Shown here in pieces: positions 13,063-63,941 of a stretch of 64,000 nucleotides of DNA. The first letter of the stretch is position 1; every line of letters starts with the position of its first letter. The stretch is from Candidatus Pelagibacter sp. Its GTDB lineage: Bacteria > Pseudomonadota > Alphaproteobacteria > Paracaedibacterales > CAIOTO01. Location of the stretch: the NCBI GenBank assembly GCA_013823725.1, contig PNMQ01000004.1, forward strand, positions 33,569 to 97,568, written 5' to 3'. A model generated the notes under the pieces. That model was not told where the DNA came from and did not search any database. It saw only the letters and a program-made list of their open reading frames with translations. A program made the position numbers and the translations under genes.

Positions 13063-13980
13063 TTAAGAATTTGTATGGTTAATCCAATAACTATCAAATC
13101 CAGCAAGCACAGAGCCTCTTACAATTCTGGATAGCCATCCATGATAAAGCGTATGTAAAGAACCAGATCTATAAAGTTTCTGAATAAATAAAAAAGTCGT
13201 TACAGGGCTGCGTAAACTTCTTATGTTTTCTGCATGTATTTGAGCTCTTAAAGTTAATAGTGGAAAAGTAACTGACGCCTGTATTGCTGAAATTATGGGC
13301 CCCATAATGCAAGATTCAGAAAAAGTAAGATTATCTTTCTTGTTAAACAGTATCTGTTTTAAAATCCTGTTAGAGATCAAAAAAACATTCAAATGCAAAA
13401 ACGAAGATTGAAAAGTTAATAATCCACCTTGAAAAAACCACGATCTATGCCTGAAACAATCTGAAAAATCGCATCTATTATTTTGGATGAATGGAATGTC
13501 AAGCTTGCGAATATAAGCCACTTTTATACGCTCAAATGGATTAGCAAAAACGATATCAGTAGATGAAATCATAGCAGAAATAAATAATTGAGAAACCACA
13601 GGATTCTTCAAATAACTATTTTCTGGTAATTTTTTTGTCTGTAACATTAAATATTTATATAAAAAATAGGTAGACTGTGCACGTAGTGTTAATTCAACAA
13701 GATGTGTTTTCAAAATAGGCACTAAAATAGGTCGATGTACTGTTTTAATAGCCTTAAAAAGGCCACTATAGGAGTCACCCGTTACTTGTCTACCTATAGT
13801 CAGAAAATCAAACGGAAAAGATATAATAGGGCGTGTAACCGCAGGAACAGTGCTTTCTTTTACAGCTTTATAAAATAACTGAGACTGAGATATAACATTA
13901 CTTCCGTCTTTATCTACAGCGAAACCATAAGAATAAAGACAGAAAAAAATTAAATAAAATTTATATCGCATTTTGCACAA
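13063..13980 (-). CDS. Mitochondrial-carrier-family-like membrane protein (eukaryote-like)
   Basis: 305 aa. Three ~100-aa segments each contain a degenerate P-x-[DE]-x-x-[KR] carrier motif: PFDFLTIGRQ, PFERIKVAY and PLLTLRAQ. Each is followed by an aromatic/Gly segment and an even-numbered helix; the third, LYHGWLSRIVRGSVLAGFDSYW, is close to the canonical carrier consensus. Confidence 0.45.
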   Translation of the reverse strand: MCKMRYKFYLIFFCLYSYGFAVDKDGSNVISQSQLFYKAVKESTVPAVTRPIISFPFDFLTIGRQVTGDSYSGLFKAIKTVHRPILVPILKTHLVELTLRAQSTYFLYKYLMLQTKKLPENSYLKNPVVSQLFISAMISSTDIVFANPFERIKVAYIRKLDIPFIQNNRCDFSDCFRHRSWFFQGGLLTFQSSFLHLNVFLISNRILKQILFNKKDNLTFSESCIMGPIISAIQASVTFPLLTLRAQIHAENIRSLRSPVTTFLFIQKLYRSGSLHTLYHGWLSRIVRGSVLAGFDSYWINHTNS

Positions 13981-39656: not shown

Positions 39657-41078
39657 TTACCAAAGGCCAAGAACTTTCCACCATAGTCCGCCACCACATA
39701 TCCAAATGATAAGATTAATAATACTGACTATAAATCCAATTTTCCACCAATCACCTAATTTAACGTAATTTGCACCAAAAACAATAGCACCCGCAGTTGT
39801 TCCATAATGCGTCATACTTGAAAATAAACTACTAAAAAATGCAAGCAAGAGTGCTGCAACTAAAGGAGGAGCTCCTATAGAAATACTAACAGCTAAAAAT
39901 GCAGCATACATTGAAGATACATGTGCTGTGTTGCTTGCAAAAAAGTAGTGACTATAAAAATAACATAAGGATAAAAATAGGAATCCCTTTTGCCAAGGCC
40001 AATCGACTACAAATCTTGAAATATTTTGGCTAAACCAAGATATAAAACCAAACTTATCAAGGTAGGTCGACAATGTAACAAGAACCGCAAGCCAGATGAA
40101 TGTATTCCATGCTTCCTTTTCATTCATCACATCTTTCCAATCAATGATTTTCAAAACGATTGTTAAGACTAAACCTAATAAGGCTGCTGTTGAAGCACCA
40201 ACGCCCGTTTGTTTTGCAAAAATCCAAAAAAACAGAATTAGACAAAAAATACCAATCATCGTTTTTTCTTTAGAACTTAATGGTCCTAATTTTTCTAATT
40301 GATCACGGGAAAATTCTTTTGAATTTTTAATAACTTTTAATTCAGGTGGATAAATCCAATATAAAACCAAAGGAATAACCAACAAGCTAATCAACCCAGG
40401 AACACTAGCAGCAACAAACCAAGAAACCCAAGTAATTTCAACATTTTGTTTTGCCGCTAAGCTTTGCGCCATTGGGTTTGCAGCCATCGCAGTTAAAAAC
40501 ATTGCACTGGATATTAAATTACTTTGAAAAGTGACTTGATACAAAAAGGATCCTAATTTTCTTTCCGTACCATGTTCAGGGGAACTACCCAAAGTTTCAG
40601 AAATAGACTGGATAATTGGAAGCATCACACCACCGGTACGCGCGGAATTACTAGGCATAAAAGGTGCAATCAACACTTCTGTAATAGCTATTCCGTATCC
40701 CAAACCAAGAGTGCTTCGCCCCAAAAGACCCACAAAGATATAAGCTAATCTTGTTCCTAACTGAGTTTTAATAAACCCACGGGCGATAAAAAAAACAAGA
40801 ACAACCAGCCAAATTACTTGATTCGAAAACCCTGCCATTCCTTCTTCAAAGGTTAAAACATTTGTTAGTACAGTTACCAAAAGACCTAATAACGCAATAA
40901 AAGGCATAGGGTATGGCTTAAGTACAATTGCTGTAATCGTAGCCACAAAAATAGAAAATAAGTGCCAAGCTTTAGGCTCTAAACCTACCGGAATAGGCAT
41001 CAGATAGATAGATAGACCAATAATAATCGAGAAAAATATTTTTAAATTTGTTGCATTCATTTTTATCTTATTCTCCAA
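39657..41078 (-). CDS. DASS-family (SLC13-like) anion/dicarboxylate transporter
   Basis: 473 aa polytopic with the hairpin-tip motif SNSARTGG. The overall pattern resembles 2-oxoglutarate/malate translocators and CitT-like carriers. Confidence 0.7.
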   Translation of the reverse strand: MENKIKMNATNLKIFFSIIIGLSIYLMPIPVGLEPKAWHLFSIFVATITAIVLKPYPMPFIALLGLLVTVLTNVLTFEEGMAGFSNQVIWLVVLVFFIARGFIKTQLGTRLAYIFVGLLGRSTLGLGYGIAITEVLIAPFMPSNSARTGGVMLPIIQSISETLGSSPEHGTERKLGSFLYQVTFQSNLISSAMFLTAMAANPMAQSLAAKQNVEITWVSWFVAASVPGLISLLVIPLVLYWIYPPELKVIKNSKEFSRDQLEKLGPLSSKEKTMIGIFCLILFFWIFAKQTGVGASTAALLGLVLTIVLKIIDWKDVMNEKEAWNTFIWLAVLVTLSTYLDKFGFISWFSQNISRFVVDWPWQKGFLFLSLCYFYSHYFFASNTAHVSSMYAAFLAVSISIGAPPLVAALLLAFFSSLFSSMTHYGTTAGAIVFGANYVKLGDWWKIGFIVSIINLIIWICGGGLWWKVLGLW

Positions 41079-41568
41079 TTTACAAAAAACACAAAATCTT
41101 AATTTTATAAAACTAAATATTTATTATCTTTGATAGTTTCCCACATAATAGCAAAAATTTCAAAAAAATGCTTTCTTTTAAAAATCTGTTAAAATTAATG
41201 ATGCTGAACAAACACCTCACATTGTTATTAAAAAAATTTAAAATATAGTATCCACATATAAGTTAGCAAGATGAACTAAATCACCTTATTCCTCTGAAAT
41301 GAGATCATCACTCCTATGTTTTTTCATCAGTCTAAATCTACTATTTAATATACACTGAAGGGAAAGTGTAGGAGTTTTTTTGGTTACAAAGCACAATAAA
41401 TTCGTGCTGACATCATATATGCATCTCTTGCGTTTATTTTCATAGTCAAAAAAAATGCCACAAAAAAATTATTATGGCTAAAAAACATGGCACCGTAATA
41501 TAACATGGCTTTCCCAAAACGATTTTGATATATTTTATATGATATATATAAAAAAAGGATACTGTAAC

Positions 41569-43866
41569 ATGTCTAATAATGTTTTTGATGAATCAGTCAT
41601 CTACCATAGAAGAAAACCATACGGAAAACTTTCGGTTGTTCCAACGAAACCTCTAGATGACCGTGAAGATCTTGCTTTAGCTTATTCTCCAGGTGTTGCT
41701 GAACCTTGCAGGCTTATTCAAAATAACCCTCTAGAATCATTAGAATTAACATCAAGAGGAAACCTCGTCGCTGTTATTTCAAACGGGACAGCAGTTTTAG
41801 GATTAGGAAACATTGGTGCTTTAGCTTCAAAACCGGTGATGGAAGGCAAAGCTGCTTTATTTAAAAAATTTGGTAACATTGATTCTTTCGATATTGAAAT
41901 TGATGAAACAGACCCTGACAAACTTGTTGAAATTATTGCTTCACTTGAACCTACATTTGGAGGTATCAACCTTGAAGACATTAAAGCTCCTGAATGTTTT
42001 TATGTTGAACAAAAATTAAAAGAACGCATGAAAATTCCTGTGTTCCACGATGATCAACATGGAACAGCTGTTATCGTTGCGGCTGCAACACAAAATGCTT
42101 TGGAGCTTTTGGGAAAAAACATTCAAGATGTTAAACTTGTCGCATCTGGTGCTGGCGCTGGTGCAATGGCTTGTTTAAACTTGCTTATGCATATAGGTAT
42201 CAAAAGAGAAAACATTACAGTTTGTGATAGTAAAGGTGCAATTCATTCCGGTCGTGAAGATATAAAGGACCCTTATAAAAAAGCGTTCATGATAGAAACA
42301 CCCAATAGAACTTTGAAAGATGCCTTAAGAGGTGCAGACATGTTCTTAGGTCTATCTGTTGCAAATGTTTTTGACGAAGAAATGATTGCTTCACTAGCCC
42401 CTAACCCGCTAATTTTAGCTCTAGCAAATCCAAATCCAGAAGTAACTCCTGAACAAATTCTCAAAGTAAGATCTGATGCCATTATCGCAACAGGACGATC
42501 TGACTACCCCAACCAAGTCAACAACGTTCTATGTTTTCCTTACTTGTTCAGAGGTGCTCTAGATGTAGGTGCGTCATGCATTAACGAAGAAATGAAAATT
42601 GCTGCCGTTGATGCTATTGCAAGACTTGCCAAAGCAGAAACAACAGATGTTGTAGCCAACGCTTACGGTGGTGAAGTTCACCGTTTTGGCAGAGACTATA
42701 TTATTCCAAAACCATTTGACCGTCGTCTCTACATGGAAATTGCTGCAGCTGTGGCAAGAGCTGCTATGGACACAGGCGTAGCAACAAAACCAATTCAAGA
42801 TTTTGCAACGTATCTTCATGATCTTGAAAGTTATGTGTACAGATCAACTTCTTTCATGAGACCTATTTTTGAAATTGCTAAATCTGAAAAAGCAAAAGGT
42901 ACACGTATCTGTTTTGCTGAAGGTGAAGACAACCGTGTTTTACAAGCTGCTCAAGGTCTGGCAGATCGTGGCATAGGTCATTCTGTTTTAATTGGCCGTC
43001 CAGAAGTGATTAAATGGAGAATAGACCATTTAGGGTTACGAATAGTTGAAGATAAGGATTTCACCATTGTAGACCCGAACAGCGATAGCCGTTTCCAAAA
43101 ATATTGGCAAACTTATCATTCTCTTATGGAACGAAAAGGTGTTAGCCCAGACGATGCAAAAATTCATGTAAGAAGCAAAAACTCTTTAATTGCTGCTTTG
43201 GCTGTACGTTTGGGAGATGCTGACGTTTCTATTGCGGGATTAACAGGACGCTATATAGAGCACTTTAGGACTTTCAGGCAAATTCTGGGGCTTGATAAAG
43301 ATGCCGACATATGTGCTGCCGTAACACCGCTTATCTTGCCGTCAGGACCACTTTTCCTTTGTGACCCATATGTCAACGAAGATCCAACCGCGGATGAACT
43401 CGTAGAAATCACAGAATTAGCGATGAAGCAAGTTCGTCAATTTGGATTAACACCAAAAGTTGCACTTGTTTCCCATTCTAATTTTGGAACATCGTCGCTT
43501 CCTTCTGCAAAGAAATTAAGAGAAGTTAGAGATATTTTAGCTTATCAATATCCGGACTTAGAAATTGATGGAGAAATGCATGCTCATTTAGCCTTAGATG
43601 AAGACGCACGTTCTAAATTTTTCCCCAATTCCAATTTAAAAGGAATGGCTAATTTACTTATTTTCCCCAATATTGAATCTGCTAATATTTCATATAATTT
43701 AATAAAAACTTTAACAGAATGTCCAACCCTCGATCCTATCCTCATGGGACTTAATGGAGTAGCACACGTACTTAGCCAAACAGCTTCTGTAAGAACCATA
43801 TTAAACATGTCAACATTAGCTGTCGCAGAATTTCAAGGACGCAAAGCTTTATCCTCATCAGAATAA
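41569..43866 (+). CDS. maeB: NADP-dependent malic enzyme (MaeB type, with C-terminal phosphotransacetylase-like domain)
   Basis: YSPGVAEPC, the FHDDQHGTA block and the Rossmann loop [11 protein letters not shown] ~330-aa PTA-like C-terminal half follows. AAGGA lies upstream of the ATG at 41569; the ORF track begins at 41539. Confidence 0.9.
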
Positions 43867-56534: not shown

Positions 56535-58193
56535 TTAGTTACTGGGCAAAACAATACTGACTTTGAAAAAGCTTCTTTCTTTCTTTAAGGAATGAAATTT
56601 TTTGTTTTGTGAAATATCAGCTTTTATTTTTATCAATGAAATCGCTTTTTCAGAAACCCCAATTGAAACAAACTTCTTTTTGATAATGTTGAAAATTATG
56701 TCAAATTGCCTATCCAAATCTGAAGCATAGCTGAAAAATTTTGGAGAAATCAAAAAAATTAACTCTCTTGAAACTTGACTTTTTTCTAATTGATGACTGA
56801 TAGAATAACCGATATCAAAAATATCAAAGCGATTTTTTAATGTATTGATTAATTTAGACACCATCTTAGACACATGATCACGAGGATTATATTTTTTCAA
56901 AAAAGCATCATAAACAACTGGTCTATTACTTTGCTGCTCCTTCTCAAACTGGGTTTGCATTGCATTCAATGACTGATCGATTTGCTTTATGCTACTCTGC
57001 AAAAAATAAATGTTTAAACCATCTTTAAAATTTAAATAAAGGAGAATAAAAAAGAGCATGATCGATACATAGAAAAATCCTTTGAAGATTTTTGCTATAA
57101 GTAGATTTTTTTTCAAACTAAAAATTTTGAACTGATGATGAATTAATCCTGAGAAAATCCTGTAATTTTTAATATAAAGAACAGCATCCGAAATTGAAGA
57201 ACAATTCTTAAGAACAGATAAAAAATTCCTTTTCTTCACAGCTACTTGAGTTCTCACAAATTGAATTTTATTGAAAAATTTAATAGATTCAAAACAATCA
57301 ATATCGTCAAAATTTTCGTCAAAATTGCACAAAAGCAAACAATTCTTCCACTCTTGATTTACATCTAATCTTTTTGCAAATTTTACACTAGCATCAACAT
57401 GATCTAAAATATCAGAAAATTTTTGAGGATGATCAATCTGATTTTTCTTTAAATGCAGGGTACGTATAAAATAAAAGGCACCATTCTTCATCAAATAGAT
57501 TTGCCAAACCTCAGAAGATATTCGGTTAATCAAGAAGACCCATATATCTTTTAAAGCTAGATAATCCAGCTTTAAAAGCGTACAAACTTCGCCTGCAATT
57601 TTTAAATCAAAACTTGATACAAAACTAATAGGAATACTTAAATTTTTTAATATCAAAAAATGATGGGTCAAAATTTGACTAGGATGCAAAGAAACAAATA
57701 AAAGTTGAGTATTATTTTTTGGATATTTAATGAAAAGAGGACTAATCCACTCTTGAGGAGAAAATCTGCTTTTAACCAATTGAGATGTCAGAATTTTCTT
57801 CTGAACACCCTTAATCTTCCCAAGCTTGATAAGTTGAAAATCGAGATCTTCACCTTTAAGGAAAATTTGAGTATACATATTTTTCTTATGTTTCCAAAAT
57901 TCGTTTAATTTTTGCATCATGTCAGAATGTGAACAATCATCCATTTGATATACAAATTGTTCAAGTATTTGATTGGAACGAAAGTGTGAAAATGTCATTG
58001 TATCATTTTCAATCGTGACTTCTATATTTTCAAATCTTTGAAAAAAAATAAAATTCTTGAATTGGTAGGTAAAAAAATCATACGCATCATTCAAAAAAGA
58101 ATATATTTCATTTTTGAGAAAATTTTTTTTAGGTTCTTCTGTATTTGCTAGCAGGCGAGAAGAATTAAGACCCCATTTCGTGAAAATTTTCAT
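56535..58193 (-). CDS. Bitopic membrane protein with GspL / PilM-PilN-like topology (function unproven)
   Basis: 552 aa. About 365 aa of predicted cytoplasmic domain, one TM helix (aa ~366-389, IAKIFKGFFYVSIMLFFILLYLNF), a coiled coil (QSSIKQIDQSLNAMQTQFEKEQQ) and a ~130-aa C-terminal domain. Its start overlaps the GspF-like gene by 29 nt. The call rests on topology and context only. Confidence 0.35.
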   Translation of the reverse strand: MKIFTKWGLNSSRLLANTEEPKKNFLKNEIYSFLNDAYDFFTYQFKNFIFFQRFENIEVTIENDTMTFSHFRSNQILEQFVYQMDDCSHSDMMQKLNEFWKHKKNMYTQIFLKGEDLDFQLIKLGKIKGVQKKILTSQLVKSRFSPQEWISPLFIKYPKNNTQLLFVSLHPSQILTHHFLILKNLSIPISFVSSFDLKIAGEVCTLLKLDYLALKDIWVFLINRISSEVWQIYLMKNGAFYFIRTLHLKKNQIDHPQKFSDILDHVDASVKFAKRLDVNQEWKNCLLLCNFDENFDDIDCFESIKFFNKIQFVRTQVAVKKRNFLSVLKNCSSISDAVLYIKNYRIFSGLIHHQFKIFSLKKNLLIAKIFKGFFYVSIMLFFILLYLNFKDGLNIYFLQSSIKQIDQSLNAMQTQFEKEQQSNRPVVYDAFLKKYNPRDHVSKMVSKLINTLKNRFDIFDIGYSISHQLEKSQVSRELIFLISPKFFSYASDLDRQFDIIFNIIKKKFVSIGVSEKAISLIKIKADISQNKKFHSLKKERSFFKVSIVLPSN

Positions 58194-59343
58194 AAATTGG
58201 TACTACAGTCCCTAACAATATCCACATGAGAACAATTCCCATAATAAGGAGCAAGATAGGTTGAGTCCAGAAAATAATTTTATCACTCATATTTTTTTTA
58301 AACTTTTGTTCTTGTTCGCTTATGAATTTAAGGTTCTTCTCCATGCAACCAGAAATTTCTCCCATTTTCAAAACATGCAACTGAGCCTTGTTGATTCCAG
58401 GAAAGTGTAAAAATGATGTTTTGACATCATGGCCTCTATTAAGGCTATCAATCACATAATAGATATGCCTGGAAACACGCGCATTAAAATTATCTTTAAC
58501 AATATGTAATGCCTGATTAAAATGAAACTGATTAGACAGGCAAAAGGACATTTGCCTCCAAAAATCCATCACTTCAAAACGCGCAACAATGGGTATAAAA
58601 CTTAAATTTTTCCTGCATAGAATCATAAAAAAAAATATAGATGCTACAGAATATAAGATTATTGACACGTTATCTTTTACAAACATTAAACTTTTTGTGG
58701 CCAAAGAAATTTTTGAAACAGGCACTAACTGTAAAACTGAAGGCAACACCATATCAATAGAAAAATATAAACTTACTCCTAAAATAAACAAAGTTAAAAG
58801 AGGATAAAATAGAACATTGGTTAATTTCTTTTTGCTCTCAATTTTTTCAAAATAATATTCACTAATCAATTTGAACACAACCAAGTTAGACTGTGTACTA
58901 CAAATTTGTTTCAGATTAGATACTATAAAATCATCAAAAAAATCGTTACGTTGTATGTCAAAAATATTTCGACCTTTACTTAAATGATCCAAAATTTCTT
59001 GGGTTACTATTTTTAAAATTTTATGTGAACACTGTTCTTCATAAATTTTTAAAGACTCTTGCAAATTAAGCCCTGATTCAAGAAGGTCTGCACAAGACTG
59101 AAAGAAATGAGCTTTATGATAATCTGTTATTTTTTGATGAAGCCAAACGTGCTGAATAGAAACATACTGAAATCCTTCTGCCAACAAAAATTGTTGTAGT
59201 GAAACTTTGGATTCTGACATAAACTTTTTTTTTATGCCGGTATAGTTTTTATCTAAATAAGTTGCTACAAATAAAGGCAAAATTGTCAAATCATATAAAT
59301 TAAATTTAAGGTATAAATGTTGATACATTACAAACATATTCAT
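58165..59343 (-). CDS. Type II secretion / type IV pilus platform protein family (GspF/PilC-like)
   Basis: Two T2SSF-type repeats. Repeat 1 is FFQSCADLLESGLNLQESLKI...LSKGRNI...KKKLTNVLFYPLLTLFILGVSL. Repeat 2 is FWRQMSFCLSNQFHFNQALHIV...LNRGHDVKTSF...LKMGEISGCMEKNL...IIFWTQPILLLIMGIVLMWILLGTVVPIY. Three TM helices in the canonical positions. The true start may be the internal MSESK at 59220. Confidence 0.6.
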   Translation of the reverse strand: MNMFVMYQHLYLKFNLYDLTILPLFVATYLDKNYTGIKKKFMSESKVSLQQFLLAEGFQYVSIQHVWLHQKITDYHKAHFFQSCADLLESGLNLQESLKIYEEQCSHKILKIVTQEILDHLSKGRNIFDIQRNDFFDDFIVSNLKQICSTQSNLVVFKLISEYYFEKIESKKKLTNVLFYPLLTLFILGVSLYFSIDMVLPSVLQLVPVSKISLATKSLMFVKDNVSIILYSVASIFFFMILCRKNLSFIPIVARFEVMDFWRQMSFCLSNQFHFNQALHIVKDNFNARVSRHIYYVIDSLNRGHDVKTSFLHFPGINKAQLHVLKMGEISGCMEKNLKFISEQEQKFKKNMSDKIIFWTQPILLLIMGIVLMWILLGTVVPIYENFHEMGS

Positions 59344-59374
59344 GCATCAACATTTTCTGAGTTCAGTAAATTCT

Positions 59375-59881
59375 TTAACTGGTTTGGTATCTAGCAAAGC
59401 AAAAGTAATCACCTGTTGTGGTACCATCACCGTTTTGCAAGAAAACAACTCCATTATAAGTGTTCATACCTTGGGAAAGGTCTCCATTTATATCTTTGGG
59501 AACATTTAATACAAATGAACTCCCGCGCGTAATTTTTGCTTTGAAAATTTTATTAAATGCATCGATATCCATAGCACTTGTTATAACACCTCTCCCACTA
59601 GCATTATGAGAGTGTGAACGGACAAGTGTATTGCCTTGCTTCTCGACACAAACAGAAGCTGCTTTTGGGATTGCAGGAATGGCAACTTTAGAAGCAGCAT
59701 CAAAGGCTAAATCTTTTTGCTGCCTGTTAAATTGGCTTGTACTATTCATGACTTCCGCATTATAAGTATCGCCCGCAGGTATGATTTGTGCTGTTAAAGC
59801 CATAGTATTACACATAATACCACAAAACAAAATTGGAGCATATGTAGAGGCTGAAATTAAAATTCTTTTTAAATTGTTCAT
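59375..59881 (-). CDS. Exported hypothetical protein, CFARY-tail family (paralog of 2379..3161)
   Basis: Signal peptide. The C-terminal domain SVCVEK...RSHSHN...NGVVFLQNGDGTTTGDYFCFARY aligns with the 260-aa ORF at the other end of the window. Confidence 0.55.
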   Translation of the reverse strand: MNNLKRILISASTYAPILFCGIMCNTMALTAQIIPAGDTYNAEVMNSTSQFNRQQKDLAFDAASKVAIPAIPKAASVCVEKQGNTLVRSHSHNASGRGVITSAMDIDAFNKIFKAKITRGSSFVLNVPKDINGDLSQGMNTYNGVVFLQNGDGTTTGDYFCFARYQTS

Positions 59882-59950
59882 AAAAATCCCTTATTCTTTT
59901 TTTTAATATTTAATATCAAATACTTTAAACAAAGTTAATTGTTAAAAGTA

Positions 59951-61573
59951 TTAATCATCCATTTTTTTCAATTTCGAAATATTTTCAAACAACAAAATAT
60001 CATCAATACCTATGGCATTCAATTCATCAAGCGATTGACTAAACATAGTTCCATTTCTTTTGGTTCTCTCTATAACTATTTGAGTTATTAAAAAGGAATA
60101 TTTTATAAAATTTGTTTCTGATCGACTATAATCCACAATGCAAGAAGATTTATCAAGAAGTCTCAAAGTATCAAATGCTTTTAAAATTGAAAGCTGTATG
60201 AATAGTTTTATGTTTTCTGTTATAATTTCCGAAGGCAAGGGAGAAGTTTTCAAATTGAAGTAATAGTCAAACCAGTTATTATCCAAAAAATACTGTTGTA
60301 AGTTATGAAATAAACTATTTAAAAGCTCTGATCTTTGTGTGTCTTTCTGAATTTTATCGCTTTTTAAATCTTCAACAAAGATCCTAATATCACTAAAAAT
60401 AGTATTCAATTTTATTAATGCTGAAAATTGTACAGAAGAAATATCTCCTTGAGATTTTAATTCCAAAGATTTGGCATATTTTTTCCAGTTGCTCCACTTA
60501 GATAGTAGTTCACCAAATTCTTTCTTACCGTTAATACTGACAAACTTTACTACTTCAGATGGAGTAAATCCTATTTGTACAATATATTTTTTGGCTTCAT
60601 CTAAACTATCAAAATGTATATGCACCGTTTTACGACTTACCCACGAATTTTTAGATAATGATTTTTGAACATCAGAAATTTTTGATACAAAAGAAATCTT
60701 TTTATCACGCAATAAATCATCAAATTTAAATTGTGTACTATCTTGATGAAGTGCTTTTTTTATAGCACTCAACTCATAAGTATCAAATTCTTTTTGATCC
60801 ACTGGACTACTGTATTGATGAATCATAGAAACAGCAAAAGATGGTGGCTTGGATTCCCCAAACAGTGCATACAGTTCACCGTTTATATCTGTCGTTACCA
60901 AAGTTTGTATTTCTAAATTTTCACCAAATTCAACATTAGAACCCTTACCTTCAAGTGTTGTGCTTTCTTTGAATATATTAATAGGAAGACCTGTTTTTTC
61001 ATCAAACTCTAAACTTTTAATTTTTTCCTTTCCTGATTTATCAAGATATCGTAAGCCGATTTTTACAAATCTTTTTTTCACCCTCTCGTTATTTGCATCT
61101 TTATAAAGTATTTTCTTTTTTTCTTCATCAAATGAGCGATATAGTACTTTATCTCCATTACGGTCATCATAAAAATATACTAGTCCATCAGGTAACTGAT
61201 CAGGATTCCAAAACCAAATATTATCGTAATTTATTCCTTTTAAACTCACTAATTTTTTTGCTATTTCTTGTTTTTCTAAAGACTTAAATTCTGGATCTGA
61301 TTCGATATCATTTTTATATCTAATCAATATATATTCAACAACTTCGGATCTTAAATTGCCAGATTCATACAAATTCTTACCAGGCACAGCTATTTTTTCT
61401 TTCACAGACTGTTCGGCTGGACTAGCCTTAATTTTTTCTGCCATTTGCATCTTAAGATCTTTCTTTTCATCCATGTTTATAACAGATGAATAACTCAAAT
61501 GAGAGAATAAAAATAACGAATATACTATATAAAAATATGATCTATAATTTGAAAAAATTTGTCTTGGCTTCAT
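59951..61573 (-). CDS. Exported hypothetical protein (540 aa, Lys/Glu-rich)
   Basis: N-terminal hydrophobic signal (YFYIVYSLFLFSHLSYSS). No recognisable domain and no Walker motifs. It is the first gene of the co-directional block ending in the GspF/GspL-like pair. Confidence 0.5.
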   Translation of the reverse strand: MKPRQIFSNYRSYFYIVYSLFLFSHLSYSSVINMDEKKDLKMQMAEKIKASPAEQSVKEKIAVPGKNLYESGNLRSEVVEYILIRYKNDIESDPEFKSLEKQEIAKKLVSLKGINYDNIWFWNPDQLPDGLVYFYDDRNGDKVLYRSFDEEKKKILYKDANNERVKKRFVKIGLRYLDKSGKEKIKSLEFDEKTGLPINIFKESTTLEGKGSNVEFGENLEIQTLVTTDINGELYALFGESKPPSFAVSMIHQYSSPVDQKEFDTYELSAIKKALHQDSTQFKFDDLLRDKKISFVSKISDVQKSLSKNSWVSRKTVHIHFDSLDEAKKYIVQIGFTPSEVVKFVSINGKKEFGELLSKWSNWKKYAKSLELKSQGDISSVQFSALIKLNTIFSDIRIFVEDLKSDKIQKDTQRSELLNSLFHNLQQYFLDNNWFDYYFNLKTSPLPSEIITENIKLFIQLSILKAFDTLRLLDKSSCIVDYSRSETNFIKYSFLITQIVIERTKRNGTMFSQSLDELNAIGIDDILLFENISKLKKMDD

Positions 61574-61850
61574 TTTCTATGTCTAACCCAATAAGGTTTA
61601 TATAGGAACATGATTACAAAATATTGTAAAAAATATATTAATGAAAGAATTTATAATTCTTTTTTTGGATATTATAAATTTTAATTTTATAATAGTTGAT
61701 CATTATAAATCTTTATGATTAAATATAAAAGTATAGAATGTTTTCCATTTTAAGAGAATAAAATGAACATAATTTTTAATGCGTGGCGATGGTGTCTAGA
61801 AAAAACACTACCCGTGCGTGCTAATTTTATGTCTTTAGAAAGCTCTTATT

Positions 61851-62855
61851 ATGAATGTGATTACTCGATCTTATAAATCTACAACCAATCTTTTTCCTTT
61901 GCTTTTGGCTATACTGACTTCCATTTTTTTATCTTCTTGTTTAAATAAATCAATTTCTCAAAAAGTATTGTTGCCCTCTAATAACCAAATTAAGGCAAAA
62001 CTTATTGAAAATATTCTTCAACAATATCAGTTATCCTACGACATCGATCAGCACTCTATTGATGAAGATTTTGTATTGCAAAAGCATAGCCTTCAAATTC
62101 CTAAAATTGTGCATGATCAATTAATTTATTTTATTAAACATCATTTACCCATTGATATTCGTATGGTCGGATTTCCATTCAAATCTGTAAATACTCAGCG
62201 CAAAGTAATTGCGCAAAGGGCCGATATGGCCGAACGCTTAAGTTTACAATATTTGCACGGTATGCTTGAGAAGATAAAAGCTGTTTATTCTCCAGGTGCT
62301 ATGCTTACAATCCTATGTGATGGAATTGCTTTTAGTGACGTTTTTCATATAAGTGATGAACACATTAAAATTTATGAAGATACTCTAAAAATATTATCCA
62401 AAGATTTGAAGGGGATAAAAATTCTATCCTCATATGATTTAGGATTAAGATCCGCATATTTTAAGAAAATCAAACATAACGCGAGATCAGTAAGTGATCA
62501 GGTTACATTAAATAGAATGGCTTTTGAGCTCAACCAAAGAAAAGATGATCATACCGTAATTACAAAAACAAAACAAATTCAGGCGTACAGTCAGCATTTT
62601 GGAATGCTTATCAAAAATAAATTTTCAAACCAAAATTACATCAAGGCTTCTGTCCATTTTCAATTTTCTACTAGTCCCAAAATAGGTTTAAAACTATCTC
62701 CAGATTCTTCTGTTACTCCATGGCATGGAACCCTTTTACAAGAATCCGATGGTCGATGGCGCATTGTACATCTTGAAGATATTAATCAAACGAAATATGT
62801 ACGAACAGGTATATACGTAAATCAATATTGGTGCGCTTTTTTCAAAGCTAAATAA
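61851..62855 (+). CDS. DIT1/PvcA (isonitrile synthase) family protein with lipoprotein signal
   Basis: MVGFPFKSVNTQRKV...ADMAERLSLQYL...VYSPGAMLTILCDGIAFSDVFHISDEHIKIYEDTL and ASVHFQ....PKIGLKL.....VTPWHGTLL...DGRWRIVH match the conserved PvcA/IsnA/DIT1 blocks (PAFPxKSxNxxKV, DxxE, Y.PGA...I.SDG.VFSD, LSIHPQ...K.GI.L...TPWHG). The N-terminus has the lipobox LSSC. Confidence 0.65.
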   Translation: MNVITRSYKSTTNLFPLLLAILTSIFLSSCLNKSISQKVLLPSNNQIKAKLIENILQQYQLSYDIDQHSIDEDFVLQKHSLQIPKIVHDQLIYFIKHHLPIDIRMVGFPFKSVNTQRKVIAQRADMAERLSLQYLHGMLEKIKAVYSPGAMLTILCDGIAFSDVFHISDEHIKIYEDTLKILSKDLKGIKILSSYDLGLRSAYFKKIKHNARSVSDQVTLNRMAFELNQRKDDHTVITKTKQIQAYSQHFGMLIKNKFSNQNYIKASVHFQFSTSPKIGLKLSPDSSVTPWHGTLLQESDGRWRIVHLEDINQTKYVRTGIYVNQYWCAFFKAK

Positions 62856-62948
62856 TCCAAATCTCAAATTTTATAACCACTACAATATCCACATGCATGA
62901 ACATAAAGTTCATATACACCTCTATATTATAGAAAAGGAAAGATCATA

Positions 62949-63941
62949 ATGAAAATCAAATCAATTCGCATAATTTTAAAAAAGTTTCTATTTGTTACAT
63001 TTACAATTTCTGCAACTTTAAATACTTACGGCACAGAAAATGTGATTAAATATCTTGAAAAGTCCAAGATTAACATTGGCGATTTATCTGAAGAAGGAAT
63101 AATCATTATATCAAAACACATAGAGAGTTTACCAAAAATTGATATCAAACAAGGTAGTGCTTTACAAGCTATCAGCTCCTATTTGAAAAAATGCATTAAA
63201 AATAAACCCAAAAGCTCAATTGAAGATTTAGTAAAAAATTCAATCGGACAGAGGGAAAGAATTCAATGTGTTATGCTTGGTTTTCCTGTAAAATCACAAA
63301 ATATGGATGAAGTTTATAATCATCAAGCAGGACTAGGTGATTTTCTAAGCTTACTAACCTTACATTATATCGCTTGCGAAATAGAAAAGGTGTATGCACC
63401 TGGAGTAACATTTAAGATTATCAGTGATTATGTTGCTCTAAAAGAAATTGTGGATCCTGAATCTGCCACTGTTTATCAAACAGGAATTCAAACATTAGCG
63501 AATTTATTCCCAGATACGATTATATATGACCTTAGTTTTCATGACATAGATTGCTTCACTATTTTTCAAGAATCGACAGCATACAACAAACGGTACTCAG
63601 AAGCTGGAAAAGGTAATTCGATTAAAATCCATGAAGCACTATTAAAATCAAAACAATTTAGCGATTATATCACTAACGAATTTAAAAACATTCCACACCT
63701 TCGATTTTCAGTACATTCCTATAAAAATGGAGAATCCAATAAATTAACTTTACCATTTTATAGCAATAAATTAGGAACACCTTGCCACCACGTTTGCTTA
63801 GTTAATTATCATTACAATAGCGCCTTCGTTAAGTATAAAAAAGTAAGCGCAGAAAGTACGATAGAATTAAAAACTCTTGATATCACAAATTTAAATAGCA
63901 TGCACATATCACTGCCATATTTTCAAGATATGAAGCCTTAG
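62949..63941 (+). CDS. DIT1/PvcA family protein, second tandem paralog, with signal peptide
   Basis: MLGFPVKSQNMDEV...LGDFLSLLTLHYI...VYAPGVTFKIISDYVALKEIVDPESATVYQTGI and LRFSVHSY....NKLTLPF....GTPCHHVCL. These are the same blocks as the upstream gene but more degenerate: the SDG Gly is replaced and TPWH becomes TPCH. The N-terminus is Sec-type. Confidence 0.55.
   Translation: MKIKSIRIILKKFLFVTFTISATLNTYGTENVIKYLEKSKINIGDLSEEGIIIISKHIESLPKIDIKQGSALQAISSYLKKCIKNKPKSSIEDLVKNSIGQRERIQCVMLGFPVKSQNMDEVYNHQAGLGDFLSLLTLHYIACEIEKVYAPGVTFKIISDYVALKEIVDPESATVYQTGIQTLANLFPDTIIYDLSFHDIDCFTIFQESTAYNKRYSEAGKGNSIKIHEALLKSKQFSDYITNEFKNIPHLRFSVHSYKNGESNKLTLPFYSNKLGTPCHHVCLVNYHYNSAFVKYKKVSAESTIELKTLDITNLNSMHISLPYFQDMKP

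Follow-up and report, generated by a model that had tools for sequence, protein, structure and literature searches.

A conserved pair of PvcA/IsnA-family genes with export signals and an upstream tryptophan-codon leader in a Candidatus Pelagibacter sp. contig

The window analyzed here, a stretch of 64,000 nucleotides (nt) from an assembly deposited as Candidatus Pelagibacter sp. (GCA_013823725.1, contig PNMQ01000004.1, positions 33,569 to 97,568), carries at its right end two adjacent genes of the PvcA/IsnA family, which we refer to as c1 and c2. Both proteins begin with export signals, the two genes lie side by side in every locus with enough flanking sequence, and no partner oxygenase is found within 10 kb of them. 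The c1 protein has kept nearly all of the residues that are invariant in the family, c2 has lost many of them, and a short conserved leader open reading frame (ORF) with tryptophan codons precedes c1. The reading that we prefer, tentatively and with somewhat less than even confidence, is that c1 and c2 form an exported, envelope- or host-facing pair of isonitrile-type enzymes, with an active c1 and a non-catalytic c2, and that the pair responds to tryptophan.

A two-gene module of the PvcA/IsnA family

An initial annotation of the window, made from the sequence alone, had described two adjacent ORFs of ~330 amino acids, and its coordinates prove to be exact: c1 (61851-62855, plus strand, 334 amino acids) is the catalytically conservative member of the pair and c2 (62949-63941, plus strand, 330 amino acids) is a divergent paralogue. 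The motifs that it quoted are likewise all present, namely FPFKSVNTQRKV (residues 108-119), ADMAERLSLQYL (124-135), YSPGAMLTILCDGIAFSD (146-163) and VTPWHG (288-293) in c1, and ISDYVAL (158-164) and TPCHH (277-281) in c2. A profile search bears out the family that it had proposed. Against PF05141 (DIT1_PvcA; gathering threshold 26.4 bits) c1 scores 134.9 bits (E 4.8e-39) and c2 74.0 bits (E 1.8e-20), which is far enough over the threshold that the match is not due to chance. On NCBIfam NF045653, the equivalog model for PvcA (L-tyrosine isonitrile synthase), the scores are 92.2 and 30.3 bits for a cut-off of 600 bits, and judged by these profiles both proteins are members of PF05141 and not orthologues of PvcA.

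The two proteins are 27% identical to each other. Among sequences in the Protein Data Bank, c1 matches PvcA (3E59, E 6e-23) and the IsnA-type entries 9DH4, 9DHN and 9DHM (all ~1e-22), whereas c2 reaches 3E59 at an E-value of 2e-4 only, in agreement with its description as the more degenerate copy. Fold searches with AlphaFold models of c1 and c2 point to the same relatives: at E<=1e-3 they returned only PIsnA (9DH4, 9DHM) and PvcA (3E59), with tyrosyl-tRNA synthetases and cyclodipeptide synthases ranking below. The template-modeling (TM) scores were 0.43-0.59, from models of mean predicted local distance difference test (pLDDT) score 64 that were built on 7-12 sequences only, and no active-site geometry was taken from them. 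Relatives of c1 share a clade-specific motif, Y-x-L-x-YDID, that follows the hydrophobic N-terminus. For c2, a profile search of a word-indexed database found 5 relatives and a scan of metagenomes 6 loci. Homologues are labeled in databases only as "L-tyrosine/L-tryptophan isonitrile synthase family protein" or "pyoverdine/dityrosine biosynthesis protein Dit1". We also considered whether c2 is a recent duplicate or sister of c1 and found this unsupported, all c2 proteins scoring better on a hidden Markov model (HMM) of the canonical family than on one of c1.

Wherever the flanks are long enough, in ~20 loci in all (the window, L002/L007, L004, L006, L008/L009, L010-L018 and L021-L026), genes of the c1 and c2 types lie next to each other on one strand. 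Their order varies, being c1-c2 in some loci and c2-c1 in others, and an all-against-all BLAST of the neighbors in 11 loci recovered no third conserved family, only c1 and c2. Since adjacency has been kept despite shuffled order and unrelated surroundings, c1 and c2 are likely to work together, and the comparison of loci identifies them as an ancient conserved two-gene module. An extra c2-type copy is present in two Dependentiae-like loci, L012 (5980-9602) and L014 (4858-10363), each of which has three PF05141 genes, one of the c1 type and two of the c2 type; an ankyrin-repeat gene interrupts the set in L014.

The initial annotation had noted that no partner oxygenase is visible before the window ends, and had suggested that the pair might be the first genes of an isonitrile locus that continues downstream. 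The former observation holds and can be extended, and the latter suggestion does not stand. We followed the same contig in the public assembly for 10 kb past the window end and found, beyond c2, genes for a 569-amino acid protein without a Pfam match, LolA, PBP5, FtsH, a GrpB/GNAT protein, an ATP_bind_3 (TilS-type) protein, a thioredoxin-reductase-like protein, glutaredoxin and RNase H, with no dioxygenase, P450 or transporter among them. Within 10 kb on either side of the pair there is no PvcB/IsnB-type dioxygenase or P450, nor is any oxygenase conserved beside the pair in the 11 loci compared or in L015-L018 and L026. Housekeeping genes thus follow the pair, which has no conserved neighbor. 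That the pair marks the border of a larger isonitrile cluster or, as discussed below, that its start codons are miscalled seems to us highly improbable and is already contradicted by the data.

An exact 189-nt contig of c1 (window 62449-62637) occurs in a sequencing run that is flagged as probable RNA and coded "organism A". This suggests that a sample labeled as a single organism, and not as a metagenome, contained the bacterium and perhaps transcripts of c1.

Residue loss in c2 and export signals in both proteins

As family invariants we took the 22 positions conserved in at least 85% of 36 canonical members, and these stand in for published catalytic residues. The c1 protein keeps 19 of them (F108, P109, K111, S112, N114, K118, D125, E128, Y146, G149, D157, G158, Y175, S267, H269, K277, P290, W291 and H292) and deviates at F222R, D226E (clade-wide, and perhaps an alignment offset) and R265K; its orthologues deviate at 2-5 of the 22 in every locus. 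In c2 the deviations number seven: K118 is replaced by E121, D125 by G128, E128 by D131, G158 by Y161 and W291 by C279 (c1 numbering first), and the segment that aligns to canonical F222 and D226 (positions 222-226, the RFMxED motif) is absent. Most loci have a c2 that deviates at 7-9 positions, and the residues lost differ by lineage, those of the Dependentiae-like proteins being K111 to A/S, K118 to I/V, D125 to S/N/G, DG to EP and H269 to R. L009 and L017 each have a nearly intact c2. Within its own subclade c2 is nonetheless conserved, at 50-52% identity with long identical blocks. A protein that keeps its fold, its signal and its neighbor while its catalytic motifs decay separately in each lineage follows the pattern of pseudoenzyme subunits. 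From this comparison c2 is most likely a non-catalytic partner or specificity subunit, and c1 is likely to be the catalyst of the pair.

Both copies had been noted to carry export signals, and these turn out to be kept across the clade, as judged by rule-based checks and by conservation. The N-terminus of c1, MNVITRSYKSTTNLFPLLLAILTSIFLSSC, has a basic n-region, a 13-residue hydrophobic core and a lipobox, the order being R6 and K9, LFPLLLAILTSIF and L-S-S-C30. It fits the lipoprotein criterion that we applied, a PROSITE-style pattern in which a basic n-region and a hydrophobic h-region lead up to [LVI][ASTVI][GAS]C, the Cys being one of residues 15-35. The signal peptide with its L-S-S-C lipobox occupies 61851-61940 on the plus strand, and the mature protein is predicted to begin with a lipidated Cys30 (codon 61938-61940). 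Only 3 of 60 c1-clade proteins match this pattern; lipoboxes are thus rare in the clade, and the lipid anchor predicted for c1 in this genome would be a local variant of a general exported-or-anchored theme. At the same place, c1 orthologues have a cleavable signal ending in VHA↓N or VYA↓N (the arrow marking the predicted cleavage site) or a hydrophobic anchor of ~20 residues. LolA is encoded two genes downstream of the pair, past the window end, so that a lipoprotein-sorting pathway exists.

The c2 protein begins with MKIKSIRIILKKFLFVTFTISATLNTYG↓TE, in which a basic n-region (MKIKSIRIILKK) and an h-region (FLFVTFTISATL) lead to small residues at -3 and -1 (T-Y-G↓T), and the c-region NTYG↓T agrees with the -3/-1 rule. 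This Sec-type signal peptide spans 62949-63032 on the plus strand and is preceded by a Shine-Dalgarno-like AAAGGA (62934-62939, plus strand) 9 nt ahead of the c2 ATG; the corresponding ribosome-binding motif of c1 is GAAAG. Orthologues of c2 have the same layout, often ending in A↓MEHVP, and a Shine-Dalgarno motif precedes their upstream ATG. A HMMER scan of 1.84 billion representatives gave 939 matches to c1, and nearly all of the ~55 closest have a basic and hydrophobic N-terminus, whereas canonical proteins of the LPAFPAKSPN type lower in the list are without one. A crude rule based on hydrophobicity is passed by 42 of 57 c1-type, 21 of 24 c2-type and 8 of 45 canonical proteins; the failures among c1- and c2-type proteins are mostly borderline by eye, and only one of the canonical passes looks genuine by eye. 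This basic and hydrophobic character is kept across 20-55% identity, in orthologues and distant relatives alike, although the sequence itself is not conserved, and on these comparisons the export signals constitute a conserved, clade-defining trait.

The initial annotation had allowed that the signals might be artefacts of wrong start codons, with internal starts giving cytoplasmic proteins. In favor of miscalled starts, the hydrophobic segment is directly followed in many c2-type proteins by a Met that could pass for a start codon (A↓MEHVP), but the Shine-Dalgarno motif stands before the upstream ATG and none stands before that Met. In the window, moreover, the first internal Met of both c1 and c2 falls within the conserved GFP.KS block, so that no internal ATG could yield a cytoplasmic protein. 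We therefore rejected this candidate, the Shine-Dalgarno motifs being placed ahead of the ATGs that include the signals and the N-terminal character being kept over so wide a range of identity. Export by the Tat pathway was rejected as well: twin arginines occur in few orthologues (P0004, L004 and L010) and are not conserved, which argues for Sec.

An alternative that we consider improbable is that the N-terminal segments are anchors that leave the catalytic domain on the cytoplasmic side, in which case c1 and c2 would be ordinary isonitrile synthases tethered to the membrane. Deep-branching c1 proteins do have helices of ~20 residues followed by basic clusters (YHTRNR, KKSKKD), and the positive-inside rule could place their domain inside. 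Basic residues stand ahead of these helices too, however, and the short h-regions and -3/-1 motifs of c2-type proteins are typical of cleaved signals. On the c1 side, the lipobox in the window and the VHA↓N ends of the alphaproteobacterial proteins are likewise at odds with such an arrangement. We also looked at a possible disulfide as a marker of the periplasm. Cys156 of c1 (62316-62318) reflects a clade that often has CDG where canonical enzymes have SDG, and c1 has a C-terminal cysteine as well, Cys328 (62832-62834). A C-terminal Cys is found in 26 of 28 c1-clade proteins with Cys156 and in 16 of 32 without it, an association that is only partial; a C156-C328 disulfide would suit an oxidizing compartment, but it is not counted as evidence.

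The tryptophan-codon leader upstream of c1

Upstream of c1 lies a leader ORF, MNIIFNAWRWCLEKTLPVRANFMSLESSYYECDYSIL followed by a stop codon (MNIIFNAWRWC...; 61763-61876, plus strand), whose ATG is 88 nt upstream of c1 and whose end overlaps the start of c1 out of frame. A Shine-Dalgarno-like AAGAG (61752-61756, plus strand) stands 6 nt ahead of the leader ATG and is invariant in six aligned orthologous upstream regions. The ORF is conserved over its first ~10 codons only; of these, codons 8 (61784-61786) and 10 (61790-61792) specify Trp, and the one that separates them is CGA, for Arg. A leader is present in 10 related loci, 76-100 nt ahead of c1 and each time with a strong Shine-Dalgarno sequence; it reads MSIKFNTWRWYSV and a stop in L002, M(S/T/N)(I/L/V)KFNTWQWRSV and a stop in L006, L026, L027 and L028, MSNNYQSWRF... 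in Finniella, M(TM)FVVNWRY... in L018, MLRYWWG... in L015 and MIKNFARLRFWH... in L017. Among 206 control gene starts, none has a comparable upstream ORF (Shine-Dalgarno and ATG, at least 9 codons, 75-105 nt away), and the Dependentiae-like loci have no such leader. Upstream of c1, the DNA is better conserved than are the genes themselves: mean column identity there is 81-88%, whereas the c1 proteins of the same loci share 55-89% of their residues.

The same region is predicted to form a long RNA hairpin (61754-61847, plus strand), taken from an RNAalifold consensus of six sequences. Its 5' arm contains the leader Shine-Dalgarno sequence, the AUG and the Trp codons, and its 3' arm flanks GAAAG and ends 4 nt before the c1 ATG, so that one conserved hairpin ties the leader to the ribosome-binding region of c1. 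In the alignment 92.5% of cells are paired, as opposed to 35-48% when the partners are slid, and there are three compensatory pairs, a number reached by 7 of 500 shuffles. Single-sequence z-scores range from -2.2 in the window to -4.75 in L015, with a signal in five of seven loci, and altogether the sequences give the hairpin modest support. No intrinsic terminator is predicted upstream of c1, no second fold that would compete with the hairpin emerged, and a search of the leader with Rfam returned no family at thresholds up to E<=10. With no terminator and a hairpin that reaches the ribosome-binding region, control would be translational. The likeness to the E. coli trp leader suggests stalling at the leader that depends on Trp-tRNA; the direction of control we infer from the geometry of the hairpin only.

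Carriers, proposed function and known systems

The named carriers of the pair are Candidatus Finniella inopinata, an endosymbiont of an amoeboflagellate, a Candidatus Dependentiae metagenome-assembled genome (MAG) and uncultured Alphaproteobacteria and Pseudomonadota MAGs. Hallmarks of intracellular life are found in several pair loci, but not in all. An ATP/ADP translocase (TLC) gene lies immediately downstream of the pair in L017 (9548-11095), multiple ankyrin-repeat proteins are encoded in some loci and a DOT1-like methyltransferase in one. The window itself encodes a Mito_carr homologue with a eukaryote-type mitochondrial carrier domain (13063-13980, minus strand, 305 amino acids, Pfam 1.4e-09), and a second one lies near the pair in L016 (15478-16422); these ORFs, which we take to be comparable to Legionella LncP, hint at an intracellular lifestyle. 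Judged by their gene content, the carriers that can be characterized look like obligate intracellular symbionts of protists, and the genome to which the window belongs is probably alphaproteobacterial. Sequence of the window is found in groundwater, lake, river and drinking-water metagenomes.

The window is part of a low-GC (~33%) bacterial chromosome, with genes for DnaE, DnaG, RpoD, RpoN, FtsA, GlmU, ATP synthase, PBPs and ribosomal proteins. Divergent from the pair is a four-gene cluster on the minus strand (56535-61573) for a 540-amino acid protein with a signal-like N-terminal segment, a 168-amino acid protein, a T2SS-F/PilC/ComGB-like membrane protein (58165-59343) and a 552-amino acid protein. 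Directly downstream of c2, on the same strand, is the 569-amino acid ORF (L001 11182-12891, ~64130-65839), which is absent beside other pairs and is followed by LolA on the opposite strand. Neither Pfam nor PHROGs has anything for the flanking 540-, 168-, 552- and 569-residue proteins. Other neighbors that do not recur are a major facilitator superfamily (MFS) transporter and a Trp/Tyr permease in L016 (10506-11708 and 14221-15420) and a DsbA-like oxidoreductase upstream in L018 (2386-3213). Farther away in the window are a malic enzyme fused to a phosphotransacetylase-like domain (41539-43866, plus strand) and a transporter of the Na+/sulfate-dicarboxylate symporter family (39657-41078, minus strand), which look like ordinary genes of carbon metabolism and are consistent with the use of dicarboxylates.

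Given such carriers, c1 and c2 might be secreted effectors, one or both being passed on after Sec export, for example by a type II secretion system (T2SS), to the vacuole or cytosol of the host, where they would carry out an isonitrile-type reaction. The classical cleavable signals of c2-type proteins would suit this role, as would the fact that most c1 orthologues are not lipoproteins, that both known substrates occur in the host cytosol and that the T2SS-F/PilC-like gene (58165-59343) lies just upstream. The lipobox of c1 in the window and the membrane anchors of the deep lineages argue for tethering instead, however; the cluster with the T2SSF gene is not conserved beside the pair elsewhere, and no secretin or other core T2SS gene was seen in the window. 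We consider such effectors unlikely.

Our preferred reading keeps the pair at the envelope. According to it, c1 would be exported by Sec, here with a lipid anchor, and would be the probable catalyst, and c2 would be exported by Sec as a soluble, non-catalytic partner or specificity subunit; the two would operate together as one unit, in the periplasm or facing the host, and not in the cytoplasm. The host cell would supply the aromatic amino acid (Trp or Tyr) as well as a ketose phosphate, for example ribulose-5-phosphate, and c1 would turn the alpha-amino group of the amino acid into an isonitrile. As no vinyl-forming oxygenase step would follow, the expected product would be the unmodified isonitrile of the amino acid or, as for yeast DIT1, the N-formyl compound that arises from it by hydration, and it would be released at the symbiont-host interface. 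Expression in this lineage would be coupled to translation of the leader of 10-13 codons, with Trp codons 8 and 10 inside the hairpin: when Trp-tRNA is scarce, a ribosome stalled at these codons would hold the hairpin open and expose the ribosome-binding site of c1, which would then be translated. The initial annotation had worried that an exported enzyme would be cut off from its pentose-phosphate co-substrate. The exported reading stands, but the objection is weakened, for in life inside a eukaryotic cell the periplasm would be bathed in host metabolites, and host pentose phosphates and aromatic amino acids could reach it through porins.

Several observations weigh against this reading. Residue 246 of c1 is Tyr (62586-62588; AYSQHF in place of ARSQ(H/Q)F). 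Every close orthologue and 83-88% of the family carry Arg at this position, which is 83% conserved and hence outside the 22 counted above. In addition, residue 265 is Lys in place of Arg. With these two changes the activity of c1 could be altered, and Tyr246 may alter substrate binding; the codon is covered by contigs of other runs, with no difference listed there. The structural models are of low confidence (pLDDT 64), above all in the active-site loops, and the topology of deep-branching c1 proteins is ambiguous, their anchors looking uncleaved and having basic residues on both sides. L017 and L018 lack a significant fold, and covariation in the hairpin is thin, with three compensatory pairs in six closely related sequences. 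Classical attenuation is on at low Trp, which would be odd for an enzyme that consumes Trp, and the availability of ribulose-5-phosphate outside the cytoplasm is an assumption.

Some of these points would fit a different role, in which both proteins are non-catalytic and serve as exported binding proteins for aromatic amino acids on the PvcA fold, induced by Trp starvation to capture Trp and Tyr from the host. The Trp codons of the leader point to induction under Trp scarcity, a related fold binds L-Tyr (according to the title of 9DH4), many invariants are lost in c2 and R246Y is present in c1, and in L016 a Trp/Tyr permease is encoded close to the pair. On the other hand, c1 keeps K111, S112, K118, D125, E128, D157, G158, H269, K277 and H292 in nearly every locus (L018 has E157), and retention of this kind across deep divergence is expected of a working active site and not of a binding protein; nor is an ATP-binding cassette (ABC) or permease partner conserved beside the pair. 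A pair of pure binding proteins thus strikes us as quite unlikely, and we continue to favor an active c1. In its most specific form our proposal would be an exported heteromeric isonitrile synthase in intracellular bacteria of at least two phyla, acting on host ribulose-5-phosphate and Trp or Tyr, with a new Trp-sensing leader in the alphaproteobacterial lineage, and in that full form we hold it to be rather doubtful.

Of the functions that the initial annotation had offered, the data support, taken as one class, neo-functionalized exported enzymes or host-directed proteins, since the export signals are conserved and are not start artefacts, and the larger cluster is the part that fell away. 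What the sequence comparisons add to it is the ancient conserved module, the lineage-specific loss of residues in c2 and the Trp-codon leader. A literature search found no description of exported PF05141 proteins, of the c1/c2 pairing or of the leader. The importance of the pair would lie in a whole exported clade that always comes with a degenerate paralogue and is never linked to an oxygenase, and its protist-dwelling carriers, where they can be characterized, point to an undescribed use of the PvcA fold at the symbiont-host interface. The leader would be a new cis-regulatory element in little-studied uncultured lineages and ties the module to tryptophan. If our interpretation is correct, an isonitrile that binds metal or heme would be made directly at the symbiont-host boundary, and the leader switch would be a chemical response to host control of tryptophan.

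To our knowledge, all characterized members of the family act in the cytoplasm and hand their product to an oxygenase. PvcA of Pseudomonas aeruginosa (3E59) and IsnA/PIsnA (9DH4, 9DHM; L-Tyr/L-Trp isonitrile synthases) have PF05141 and the fold in common with c1 and c2, and nearly all of the family-invariant residues are also in c1. Unlike c1 and c2, which carry export signals and have no oxygenase, these enzymes are cytoplasmic, have no signal peptide and are encoded beside the Fe(II)/2-oxoglutarate dioxygenase PvcB/IsnB. Clusters of the pvc, isn and amb/wel types combine an adjacent oxygenase with signal-less enzymes, and the c1/c2 locus has neither feature. The closest precedent for two paralogues is found in the cyanobacterial hapalindole, ambiguine and welwitindolinone I1, I2 and I3 genes (AmbI1-3, WelI1-3), in which two IsnA-type paralogues lie side by side, both with six core motifs and both cytoplasmic, with an IsnB-type oxygenase in a large biosynthetic cluster; in lysate, WelI1 and the oxygenase suffice for product formation, so that the second paralogue has no demonstrated role (PMC4236562). 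In both systems two paralogues are kept together, but the pair described here has a degenerate c2, export signals on both proteins and no surrounding cluster.

Yeast DIT1, which acts in the formation of N-formyl-tyrosine for the spore wall, shares PF05141 with c1 and c2, and its product ends in an extracytoplasmic surface layer. It is itself cytoplasmic and depends on both the P450 DIT2 and an exporter, and nothing of either kind was found at the c1/c2 loci. The leader resembles those of TrpL and TnaC in being short (13 codons in L002 and L006), in having its own Shine-Dalgarno sequence and Trp beside Arg, and in the RNA structure upstream of the gene. E. coli TrpL has 13-14 codons with W-W-R, where the leader here has W-R-W. 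It differs from both in that there is no terminator, no TnaC-like D16/P24 spacing and no Rfam match, and in that the genes are not those of Trp biosynthesis or degradation. As a functional analogy only, we point to the "perimeter defense" of Xenorhabdus and Photorhabdus, in which IsnA/IsnB and a glycosyltransferase make rhabduscin, a surface isonitrile that acts on host metalloenzymes. Neither the IsnB nor the glycosyltransferase of that system is present at the c1/c2 locus, and whereas rhabduscin is made in the cytoplasm and then exported, here it would be the enzyme itself that is placed outside.

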